Part shown: one piece after another, positions 56,101 through 59,100 of the stretch
Numbering within the stretch: the first letter of the stretch is position 1
Layout of the letters: each line of letters begins with the position of its first letter
Assembly: GCF_013167455.1 (NCBI RefSeq)
Contig: NZ_CP038328.1
Direction: 5' to 3' (one strand)
Origin: Escherichia coli O157:H7
GTDB taxonomy: Bacteria; Pseudomonadota; Gammaproteobacteria; Enterobacterales; Enterobacteriaceae
Length of the DNA stretch: 64,000 nucleotides
Made by a program: the position numbers

Positions 56101-59100
56101 TGGTGTCCGTCACCCTGTGGGTGATGGTCCGGATATGTGTCTGCACCTGACAGAGGTCATCCAGATCATCGTCCCGTCGTACCATATCCCTGGCAGGGTT
56201 GAAGGCGTTAGCCGCCACCTCCACGGTCGGGGCCAGAATGGTGTAGCCCGCCGCCTGCCGCCAGTTCAGTAACAGCGCCGTCATCATGATCCCGGCAGCC
56301 AGCGTGGACTTGCTGTTTTTCTTGGGGATAAGGATAAAAACTTCCTTGATATGGCGTACACCGGTCTGCGCATCGTAGGAGCCAAACAGGGCCGCCACCA
56401 GGTCAAACACCCACTGTGCGCAGGACTCCCCGAACGTCGGGCTGCCCGGTGCATCCACAATCCGCAGTTGTTTAAAAATCGCCAGGGCATGTGCGGCCTG
56501 CTCCGGATAAATCGGAGCCGGAATAATCGACAGCCCCTTTTTCAGGCGCTCTGCCCAGTCCGGGCAGGCCGTGCTCCACACAGGTATCATCCGTTGCCCT
56601 CATTATCATTATTCACCACCAGGCGGGGTGGTGGTGGCACCGCAAAACGGTTAGCCGCTTTTTTCGCCGCGTCACCTTTTGCCGATTTTTTACCGGCATC
56701 CCCTTTTTTGTGGTGCGTGAACTGCGCCAGCTTATAAGCCGCATCCAGCGCCAGCCTGGGGTCGGTATTAATGTTCTCCACCAGGATCCGCCCCATGGCT
56801 TTCACCGGATCGGGAAGACCATCCTCCATATATTCAATACCAGGAGACATCACCGCGGACGGTGGCATCTCCAGATTGTTTTCGTCCGGCTGTGGTATTG
56901 CAGCCGCCTCACGGCGACGGGGTTTATCCTCCTGCTCTGATTTTTTCTGCCGGTAAACAGGAACCTCATCCACCTCCACCGTCTCGCATTGTTTACGGGC
57001 TATAAACGCAAGCACCTCCGGATCTTTTGCCAGCTGCGAGCCTTTAACCCTGGCGGTCTTCGCCGAATAACCGGCGGCAATGGCTGACGCTATTTTGTTT
57101 TTCCCGGACATGAGCGCCAGCGCAAATTTTCGTTTTTGCGTTGTCAGCACAGCCTCCTCCCGGGTCCAGAACGCACTCAGCCGGGTATGGTTCAGCCCAT
57201 TTTTCCCGGCATCTCATGCCGCAAATGTTAACTGCTGCCTGGTTAACATTTGCTGAAAAAGCCTGTTAACATTTTTTCCGCACAACAAACTGAATAATAA
57301 AGATAAAAACCGCAAAAATGCCCGGGCAGCCAGTTAACATGTTAACTGCCCTGAAACGGGAATTTTTTCTCTGCGTGAGAGGGGGCGCGGTGTCCAGGGC
57401 GATCGTTTTTTTTCGCCGGATGATCCCCCCCGGGTCTGGTCACAGGCCAGTGATTCCGTCGGCCCTGAGCGTGCCATCAGGAAGCTCAGGCAACGTCGGA
57501 TCAGGCATACCACTCGCCGCTTCACTCGCTGACTTCTGGCGATGGCATTCAGTACAGAGGGTCCAGAGGTTCGTCTCCTCATTACCACCACCGAACTGAA
57601 GTGCAATGCGGTGATCGAGTTCACTGTCACAAAGGTCAACCACGCGTCTACAGAGACAACAGTGTCCGGCATCCCTCCGCCAGATACGACGTTTGAGGGA
57701 AACCCGGGCACTGCCACTGACACGACGCTGTTCCCCCCTCAGGACATTTATCCGCCGGGTGTTCAGAGTTTTGATTCTGCCCGGTAACGTACGAAGCACA
57801 GCCATGTAAAATCCTCGCCATATAGCTTGTCACCAGAGGAAAGAAAATGTCATCGAAAAACCGGCCCCGCAGAACCACAATCCGCAATATCCGTTTCCCC
57901 AATCACATGATTGAACAGATCAATATCGCCCTTGAACATAAAGGTTCCGGTAACTTTTCAGCGTGGGTTATTGAAGCCTGCAGAAGAAGGCTGTCAACAG
58001 AGCGTTCGGGTATGAATTACATAATTAAGTAACATGGTGTTCACAGAACACACAGTTACCGGACACATCAGTTTTCCATTCGTCCCCCGGCAGTACAGGC
58101 TTCCCGTCTGACGGGATAGCCTGAAAAAACACAGAAAATTATTTGTTATAATTAATATAACTTACTCAAAAAAAAGCGACGAGAAAATCAGCATCAACGA
58201 GCAATAAGCGCCAATACGTGATAACAAATGGCAGCCATATTTATCTGCAGTATAAGCAATGGACAGGATAACCACACCAGAAACCGTCAGCATAAAATCC
58301 ATTTGAACTTCCCCGGACAAAATCGACTCATCTAAAGATTTACAGCTCTTTTTATTATCAATATGTTAAAAGTAAAATAAACAGATGTTCAATAATACGA
58401 ATACAAAAACGTGCTGAAAATCAATGAATCCATTTCTGTGTTATCAATTAATAGTGATAAACATCCGGCTTCTTCCACCATCGCACCGGACCAGCGACCA
58501 TGAGGGGACAACGCCGCGCTCCGTTAACGCGGTAAACCCCGGTGTGTATCGTTTTTGATTATCCCCGCACACTCGCGCAGAGGATTCTCCCGGTCGGGCT
58601 GCGGTCTCTGTTAATGCAGGAATACGGCGACAATACCGCGCATGAATAATAAGGTCGCTCAACACACTGGCTGTAATGCAGCGGATACCATGCGGCATTT
58701 AGCGGCATTCATCGTACACTCAACGGTTAGCTCTTCATTCGTGGCATTCACCTGAAAGGTCCTGGAGTGTAATTGCGTACATTTACCACTGAACGAACCT
58801 TCAACAAGAACACGACCACGCTGCAAAATACGGAACGGAATTGTTCCCTGAAAAGGCTTTACGGTTACCAATAATTTCTTCATGCATTCTCCGAATAACA
58901 AAAATACTAGTTAATACACTGAGTGCGGATATATTCCTGAAGCATTCTCAATGCTGCCTGGTCGCTGATGATTCCGTCTCTGATACCGAGAACGTTTCGT
59001 CCAGCAACCGGAGAGAGTTCGACGGCGGCATCATTGCCCACGCCGGAGGTGCCGGTGGCTTCACGCACGGTACCGGGGCAGGTGGCGTTGATCCGCAGGC

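Follow-up and report, generated by a model that had tools for sequence, protein, structure and literature searches.

The 64,000-nucleotide stretch of Escherichia coli O157:H7 DNA analysed here (contig NZ_CP038328.1; hereafter the window) represents a lambdoid prophage whose late genes are encoded on the minus strand, and an AT-rich gap among them holds two small convergent genes. One is ylcI, a gene of the ylcI/ynfO family on the plus strand (57847..58032) and hence antisense to the late operon, whose 61-amino-acid DUF3950 product is a predicted ribbon-helix-helix (RHH) DNA-binding protein; the other is a 46-codon open reading frame (ORF) that runs in the direction of late transcription on the minus strand (58162..58302) and probably encodes a small membrane protein. 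We consider it fairly probable that these are two independent genes, one for an RHH protein and one for a moron-borne membrane peptide, which became neighbours through an insertion and do not function as a working pair. Both ORFs were found with the positions, strands, lengths and peptide translation given in an original prediction made from the sequence, and both are annotated in the RefSeq records of identical O157:H7 genomes, ylcI as WP_001302295.1 (YlcI/YnfO family protein) and the 46-codon ORF as WP_000347013.1 (hypothetical protein). Their stop codons are 129 bp apart. The gap had been described as lying before the lysis genes; it does adjoin them, but when the direction of minus-strand late transcription is considered, it is located after the lysis cassette and before the genes for the HNH endonuclease and the terminase. 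Around the two ORFs, the window is 100% identical to a prophage found in EC4115, TW14359 and many other E. coli O157:H7 strains, and phage PPyecE_EH1910 shares 99.6% identity with the window region.

The boundaries of the inserted DNA were determined by aligning the window with YYZ-2008, vB_EcoS-569R3, lambda ev207, an O104:H4 prophage and strain SHP24. For YYZ-2008, 569R3 and ev207, the similarity ends at about position 58003, inside ylcI, and restarts at about 58450-58462, where a conserved structured RNA element (58462..58644, minus strand) forms the right-hand boundary. The DNA in between (58004..58450, both strands; about 450 bp with a GC content of about 36%) comprises the codons for the YlcI tail (residues ~53-61), the intergenic region, the 46-codon ORF and the region upstream of it. 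In 569R3 and ev207, which are devoid of the insert, the ylcI tail runs nearly straight into the conserved RNA block, and in YYZ-2008 the same site is occupied by an unrelated AT-rich insert of about 300 bp. As relatives hold either another insert or none at exactly this site, the ~450 bp present in the window represent a moron, so that the typical moron position initially assigned to the two ORFs could be substantiated. The insert also has two hallmarks of morons in the sense of Juhala et al. (2000): it is extra DNA placed between genes that are adjacent in relatives, and its GC content of about 36% contrasts with values of 54-62%. Likewise, the gap is indeed AT-rich, with 27-43% GC over positions 58100-58480 versus 54-62% in the genes on either side. 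Within the insert, a conserved island harbours a promoter-like site, and a canonical terminator was not found. To judge from the alignments, the original 3' end of ylcI was exchanged for insert DNA. Of 5,426 E. coli genomes, 733 carry the insert, at 796 places in total; all copies but one have an identity of 95% or more, and in the listed records ylcI is annotated next to them. It is also present in lambda-type prophages (with a Nu1-like terS) and therefore travels with ylcI across packaging modules. The only inverted repeat, a pair of 10-nt sequences (58128-58137 / 58433-58442), was considered as the possible termini of the insert and rejected, as it is at chance level and lost in the diverged allele.

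The suggestion that the two ORFs might form a small regulator/membrane-peptide pair was not supported by a survey of their distribution. Of 5,426 complete E. coli genomes, 4,180 (77%) contain the core of ylcI (57847-58002), which occurs at 9,556 places in all and in up to 12 copies per genome; set against the 796 places of the insert, about 92% of the ylcI copies lack it, and a survey of locus architectures revealed ylcI to be conserved beside other inserts or beside none. Conversely, the peptide gene persists where the adjacent ylcI has been lost. In a deletion lineage represented by 152 contigs and carrying allele B of the peptide, the DNA equivalent to position 58057 continues directly into mid-terS sequence (56851; loci L133-L136, 2641-2740). 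The deletion has eliminated ylcI, the HNH gene, the 5' half of terS and what is presumably the cos region, and the peptide ORF with its upstream region is intact. Given the genes that it is missing, the prophage of this lineage must be packaging-defective, and yet it has kept the peptide gene. It also carries a 91-amino-acid remnant of terS fused in front of terL.

The arrangement of the two genes does not resemble that of known toxin-antitoxin systems either. Type II systems are characterised by a co-directional operon and by obligate co-occurrence of their partners, and ylcI and the peptide gene display neither. The small hydrophobic ORF typical of type I systems is present, but our sequence searches did not reveal a complementary antisense or divergent small RNA: there was no Rfam match, and no conserved direct or inverted repeat links the leader to the upstream DNA. 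The region between the two genes (58025-58170) contains two stable hairpins (folding z = -4.3), one of which overlaps the ylcI stop codon (58029..58059) and is lost in the diverged allele; the other, a strong 12-bp hairpin (58096..58123), is not conserved there. This 12-bp hairpin is followed by an A run on the plus strand and preceded by a U run on the minus strand, so that a terminator between the convergent genes had to be dismissed: the runs are on the wrong sides, and neither strand has a canonical terminator. With two hairpins and no canonical terminator between the genes, their transcripts probably overlap in antisense. In E. coli K-12, ybcW and ylcI were found by RNA-seq to be a convergent, overlapping transcription pair, an excludon (PMC12288877). 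By analogy, mutual antisense interference of the convergent transcripts is likely to be the only plausible interaction between the two genes of the window.

The 46-codon ORF has several properties of a genuine gene for a small membrane protein. Two hydrophobic segments (residues 1-19 and 30-45) flank the polar loop ADKYG..LLSRIGAYC, and the mean Kyte-Doolittle hydropathy of +1.1 is in keeping with the hydrophobic character noted for it at the outset. The peptide is probably a two-helix inner-membrane hairpin, and the presence of K21, H25 and R29 in the loop suggests that this loop would face the cytoplasm. A Shine-Dalgarno-like motif, GGGGAAG (58308..58314, minus strand), is positioned 5 nt 5' of the ATG. 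We recovered three allele groups, in every one of which the ORF is intact and the start codon kept; GGGGAA is retained in all three, and the spacer that separates it from the ATG differs (GGGGAAGTTCAA, GGGGAATTTCAA and GGGGAACGACAA, respectively). Allele A is that of the window, allele B carries the replacements S14F, C24Y, L36V and E46D, and allele C, from SHP24, has 80% DNA identity to A and 13 amino-acid differences from it. Replacements in the hydrophobic segments are conservative (V/I, S/A, L/I, M/I), and the loop is invariant. Between alleles A and C, the proportion of synonymous differences (pS) is 0.37 and that of non-synonymous differences (pN) is 0.13 (Nei-Gojobori; Fisher p = 0.004), and in the two alternative frames the ratios are 0.6-0.75. 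No indel falls within the ORF, whereas its flanks have at least six, several of them within 150 nt on the 3' side. Upstream of the ORF, an island of conservation (58350-58424) retains 83-100% identity in the diverged allele versus 45-70% around it, and it encloses a sigma-70 promoter-like site (TTTTCA-17 nt-TATTAT; 58392..58420, minus strand) whose -10 hexamer changes from TATTAT to GATAAT in the allele with 80% identity, each with five of six matches to the consensus. Considering all of these data, we regard translation of the 46-codon ORF as probable.

The ylcI gene is a standard fixture of enterobacterial lambdoid prophages, where it marks the border between the lysis or moron genes and the packaging genes and is always oriented against late transcription. 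In the window, 41 bp separate its start from that of the divergent HNH gene, and a Shine-Dalgarno sequence read from the DNA, AGAGGA (57835..57840, plus strand), is located 7 nt 5' of its ATG. Its product scores 70.7 bits against the Pfam family PF13132 (DUF3950; cut-off 25) and 34.8 against NF041551 of NCBIfam (YlcI_YnfO_N; cut-off 30), and matches PHROG 949, a group of unknown function, with E = 8e-31. It carries the NFS(A)W motif and the N-terminal IRFP strand of the family, in the alignments of which little or no variation is seen at F17, I25, N36, F37, S38, W40 and C45. The family is a narrow one: it accounts for 95 clusters at 50% identity in a set of 1.84 billion representatives. Conservation is high over residues 1-49; the C-terminal tails are unrelated to each other and range from 0 to about 50 residues (total length about 50-107 amino acids), because the mosaic junctions of the phages fall within the gene near codon 52. 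Upstream of the start, the DNA is unrelated between packaging-module types. A published function was not found for any YlcI/YnfO member, as the papers that name ylcI report incidental mutations only.

The RHH-like character ascribed to the 61-amino-acid protein is borne out as a structural prediction. An AlphaFold2 model of the monomer has an extended N-terminus followed by two helices, and its top Foldseek matches, ParD2 and TCP domains, are weak and all of RHH type. RHH domains exist only as dimers, and for this reason two YlcI cores joined by a Gly/Ser linker were modelled with AlphaFold2 on a matched alignment. Each half of the linked dimer consists of a strand (10-18) and two helices (19-32 and 37-54), with a predicted local distance difference test score (pLDDT) of about 90 in the core and a predicted template-modelling score (pTM) of 0.68. 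In this beta-alpha-alpha topology, the N-terminal strands of the two subunits are paired in an antiparallel ribbon, and the structures matched by the model include ParD, CopG, HicB and TacA. We thus predict that YlcI dimerises into an RHH domain of the Arc/CopG type, with DNA binding as a predicted property. At the level of sequence, hhalign placed YlcI and Arc in the expected register, but with a P of 0.03 only; a HicB-like match in PHROG was weak (E = 0.07), and neither phmmer against the Protein Data Bank nor an hmmsearch profile search returned an RHH match.

Several observations weigh against the reading of two independent, functional genes. For YlcI, the fold was obtained from a model of an artificial single-chain dimer and the sequence-level links to RHH families are weak; moreover, a consensus scan of the upstream region yielded no convincing promoter for ylcI, and no 8-mer upstream of the gene that could represent an operator is common to the packaging-module types. 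The other copies of ylcI, up to 12 in a genome, could act in trans, so that the deletion lineage does not fully prove independence. For the peptide, the coding status of the ORF is not secure, and it is unlikely, but a good deal less so than the other alternatives, that the ORF is untranslated and that the insert serves as a spacer, as regulatory DNA or as an RNA gene in which the open frame is a by-product of base composition. When the 460-nt segment was shuffled 2,000 times with its dinucleotide composition preserved, 44-52% of the shuffles contained an ORF of at least this length, and the coding strand has 39% T and so favours hydrophobic codons by default; length and hydrophobicity are consequently no evidence, and only the comparative data count. 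These, too, are tempered: in a neutral simulation with the observed transition bias the frame stayed open in 46% of the runs, and it did so with 13 or fewer amino-acid changes with P = 0.09, which moderates the Fisher p of 0.004, and alleles A and B are separated by one synonymous and four non-synonymous changes. Furthermore, conservation within the insert is highest in the upstream island and not in the ORF, which was left unannotated in phage record LC567835. Outside E. coli, no homologue of the peptide was present among 5.8 billion clusters; no family in Pfam, PHROG, NCBIfam or PADLOC matched it, nor did plasmids, and a tblastn search of phages returned only two identical records. Neither expression data for either gene, including the supplements of ribosome-profiling work on strain Sakai, nor literature on the two accession numbers were found. 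Against an untranslated insert stand the frame, start codon and GGGGAA kept across three alleles down to 80% DNA identity, the indels that accumulate in both flanks and spare the ORF, a pN below pS with conservative replacements around an invariant loop, and, with regard to an RNA gene, the lack of an Rfam match on either strand of 57990-58470.

It would be more surprising still if the two genes made up a functional module, in which YlcI, in the manner of a toxin-antitoxin or regulator-effector system, represses a toxic or exclusion peptide, or in which an antisense RNA does so as in type I systems. The adjacency of ylcI and the peptide gene in nearly all copies of the insert from complete genomes, the frequent employment of RHH proteins (such as those matched by our model) as antitoxins or repressors, the small size and hydrophobicity of the peptide, divergent promoter-like hexamers upstream of it and the possible action of extra ylcI copies in trans are all compatible with such a module. 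However, the promoter-like hits are not above shuffle expectation, no conserved repeat offers complementarity between a small RNA and the mRNA, and the distribution data discussed above, together with the convergent orientation of genes that form no operon, argue against it. Equally improbable, in our estimation, is a late-expressed accessory of lysis or packaging that is made from the Q-antiterminated transcript only, for instance to adjust the timing of lysis, and not in the lysogen. The ORF has the orientation of the late operon, follows just after the lysis cassette with no terminator between Rz and itself, and would join other small hydrophobic ORFs of that cassette, such as one of 49 amino acids (59385-59531). 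Nevertheless, the peptide is absent from most related phages with the same lysis genes and bears no likeness to holin or antiholin families, and AT-rich composition combined with a conserved promoter-like island is typical of autonomous morons. A bolder proposal, to which we assign little credence, makes YlcI a lysogen-expressed RHH repressor or roadblock that, together with convergent transcription, would gate any adjoining moron and shield the HNH and terminase genes from read-through; its copies could cross-regulate the morons of several prophages in trans, and the peptide would be a new membrane effector, either an exclusion factor or a toxin, switched on when late transcription overruns ylcI.

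The model that we favour, two independent small genes, would thus begin with an AT-rich moron of about 450 bp that inserted between the ylcI core and the conserved RNA element and replaced the 3' end of ylcI, thereby bringing in the promoter-like island, the Shine-Dalgarno motif and an ORF for a two-helix inner-membrane hairpin peptide. Like lambda bor, YlcI would be expressed in the lysogen, where it might work as a small repressor, or as a roadblock, at the edge of the packaging genes. The peptide would be produced from its own promoter and, as its ORF points in the direction of the late operon, would also be transcribed after induction as part of the late transcript. Inserted in the inner membrane, it could bind a membrane protein of the host or phage and thereby serve either to exclude incoming phages or to modulate lysis.

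Comparison with known systems places both genes in a familiar context. YlcI from the DLP12 prophage and YnfO from the Qin prophage of K-12 belong to the same family according to hidden Markov models (DUF3950 / NF041551), and their genes have the same placement, antisense to the late genes and immediately upstream of cos and the packaging genes; the DLP12 ylcI is likewise convergent with a small late-strand gene (ybcW). In contrast to the K-12 proteins, the tail of YlcI in the window (residues 53-61) is derived from the insert, and the packaging module of the window is of the HK97 type (HNH and terS), whereas that of K-12 is of the lambda Nu1 type. With P22 Arc, Mnt, CopG, omega, ParD and TraY (in its tandem form), YlcI shares the predicted beta-alpha-alpha fold and the paired N-terminal ribbon; its N-I-R-F-P...NFSAWV aligns in register with N-L-R-W-P of Arc, and both are small proteins of phage origin. 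However, YlcI has no significant sequence relationship to this group, and its gene lies outside any immunity region.

The insert as a whole resembles lambda bor and the morons found between Rz and cos, which likewise are extra DNA between lysis and packaging genes, with variable presence and deviant base composition. Bor differs in being a lipoprotein gene opposite to the late strand; the 46-codon ORF is on the late strand, encodes no lipobox and lacks a dedicated terminator. HK97 gp15 is a superinfection-exclusion moron, a small prophage-encoded inner-membrane protein, and the peptide resembles it in being moron-borne, very small and a predicted membrane protein. However, no sequence similarity of the peptide to anything outside E. 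coli was found. To the type I toxin-antitoxin systems hok/sok, ldr/rdl, tisB/istR and zorO/orzO, it is similar as a hydrophobic peptide of fewer than 60 amino acids with a long 5' leader on horizontally acquired DNA; it differs from them in the predicted two-segment hairpin, which replaces a single helix, and in that neither a complementary antisense or divergent small RNA nor an Rfam match was detected.

By itself, the ORF pair carries little weight and is fairly ordinary. Of broader relevance is that a probable fold, the RHH dimer, can be proposed from modelling for the very common and uncharacterised prophage family YlcI/YnfO, and that the C-terminal tails of these proteins are set by recombination junctions within the gene. 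In addition, one more candidate small membrane protein can be added to those of O157, O104 and O145 prophages.

Late genes flank the gap on both sides. After the holin gene come those for the lysozyme (60368-60901), for an antirepressor-like protein with an Ant N-terminal domain (59528-60097) that lies between lysozyme and Rz within the lysis cassette, for the already mentioned 49-residue hydrophobic protein (PHROG 4906, annotated as hypothetical), which is situated between the Ant-like gene and Rz, and for Rz (58907-59374), all of them on the minus strand. An Ant-like gene between lysozyme and Rz is an arrangement common to 933W and YYZ-2008. Between Rz and the RNA element, a minus-strand ORF of 74 amino acids (58659-58883) is found in some relatives only; it matches only positions 100-172 of PHROG 2571 (291 positions, unknown function), so that it may represent just a piece, or one domain, of a larger protein. 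Downstream of the gap, the HK97-type packaging module consists of the minus-strand genes for the HNH endonuclease (57440-57805), terS (56587-57150) and terL (54929-56590).

The most interesting feature of the gap, and one that merits a separate study, is the RNA element that bounds the insert on its right-hand side. This element of about 185 nt in the late transcript is more conserved than the surrounding genes and occurs, mostly unannotated, in 398 phage records, including 933W and many phages encoding Shiga toxins 1 and 2 (Stx1 and Stx2), and at least 120 stretches of IMG/VR contain it too. On the late strand it is invariably found after Rz, and it is followed by varied combinations in which the peptide gene, ylcI and packaging modules of at least three types take part. 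We consider it a candidate cis-acting element of the late transcript; if it controls expression of the late operon, it would bear on the biology of Stx phages. A search for its sequence string in the literature found nothing, and a known RNA family can be discounted, as the matches to Rfam 15 over 56500-60000, 58430-58670 and 57990-58470 were at chance level only; AsxR, AgvB, Esr41 and STnc100 are in Rfam but are located elsewhere in prophages. A second DUF3950 remnant or an 84-amino-acid ORF under the conserved block was likewise rejected, given that starts and frames are not conserved, indels of 1 and 9 nt occur and the variation takes the form of compensatory base-pairing.

Structure analysis of 53 distinct sequences revealed that the 3' half of the element contains two nested helices and an H-type pseudoknot. 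The latter is built from stem S1 of 5 bp (58498-58494 / 58484-58480) and stem S2 of 7 bp (58491-58485 / 58469-58463), with loops L1 of 2 nt, L2 of 0 nt and L3 of 10 nt (58479-58470; GGUGGAAGAA), the GAAGAA core of which is nearly invariant. Pairing is preserved in 96.2% of the cells, as compared with at most 55% when the partners are slid against each other, and compensatory changes at both positions are seen in three of the five pairs of S1 (GU 38/CG 14/UG 1; UA 36/UG 10/CG 7; CG 49/AU 3). The observed covariation was reached by none of 500 shuffles. In a covariance-model alignment, in which S1 was not modelled, 11 of 21 pairs had double changes, and no shuffle attained any of five measures. 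The frequent G-U pairs fit the late strand only. Single-sequence folding of the conserved block was uninformative (z = -0.04 for the late strand and +2.0 for the other). A copy of the element, with no RNA annotated there, was also detected in the K-12 DLP12 prophage between borD and ybcV (NC_000913.3, about 579092-579180; 44.5 bits, E = 4e-9); from its sequence, this copy is apparently diverged and degenerate, and its S1 stem seems to have been lost.

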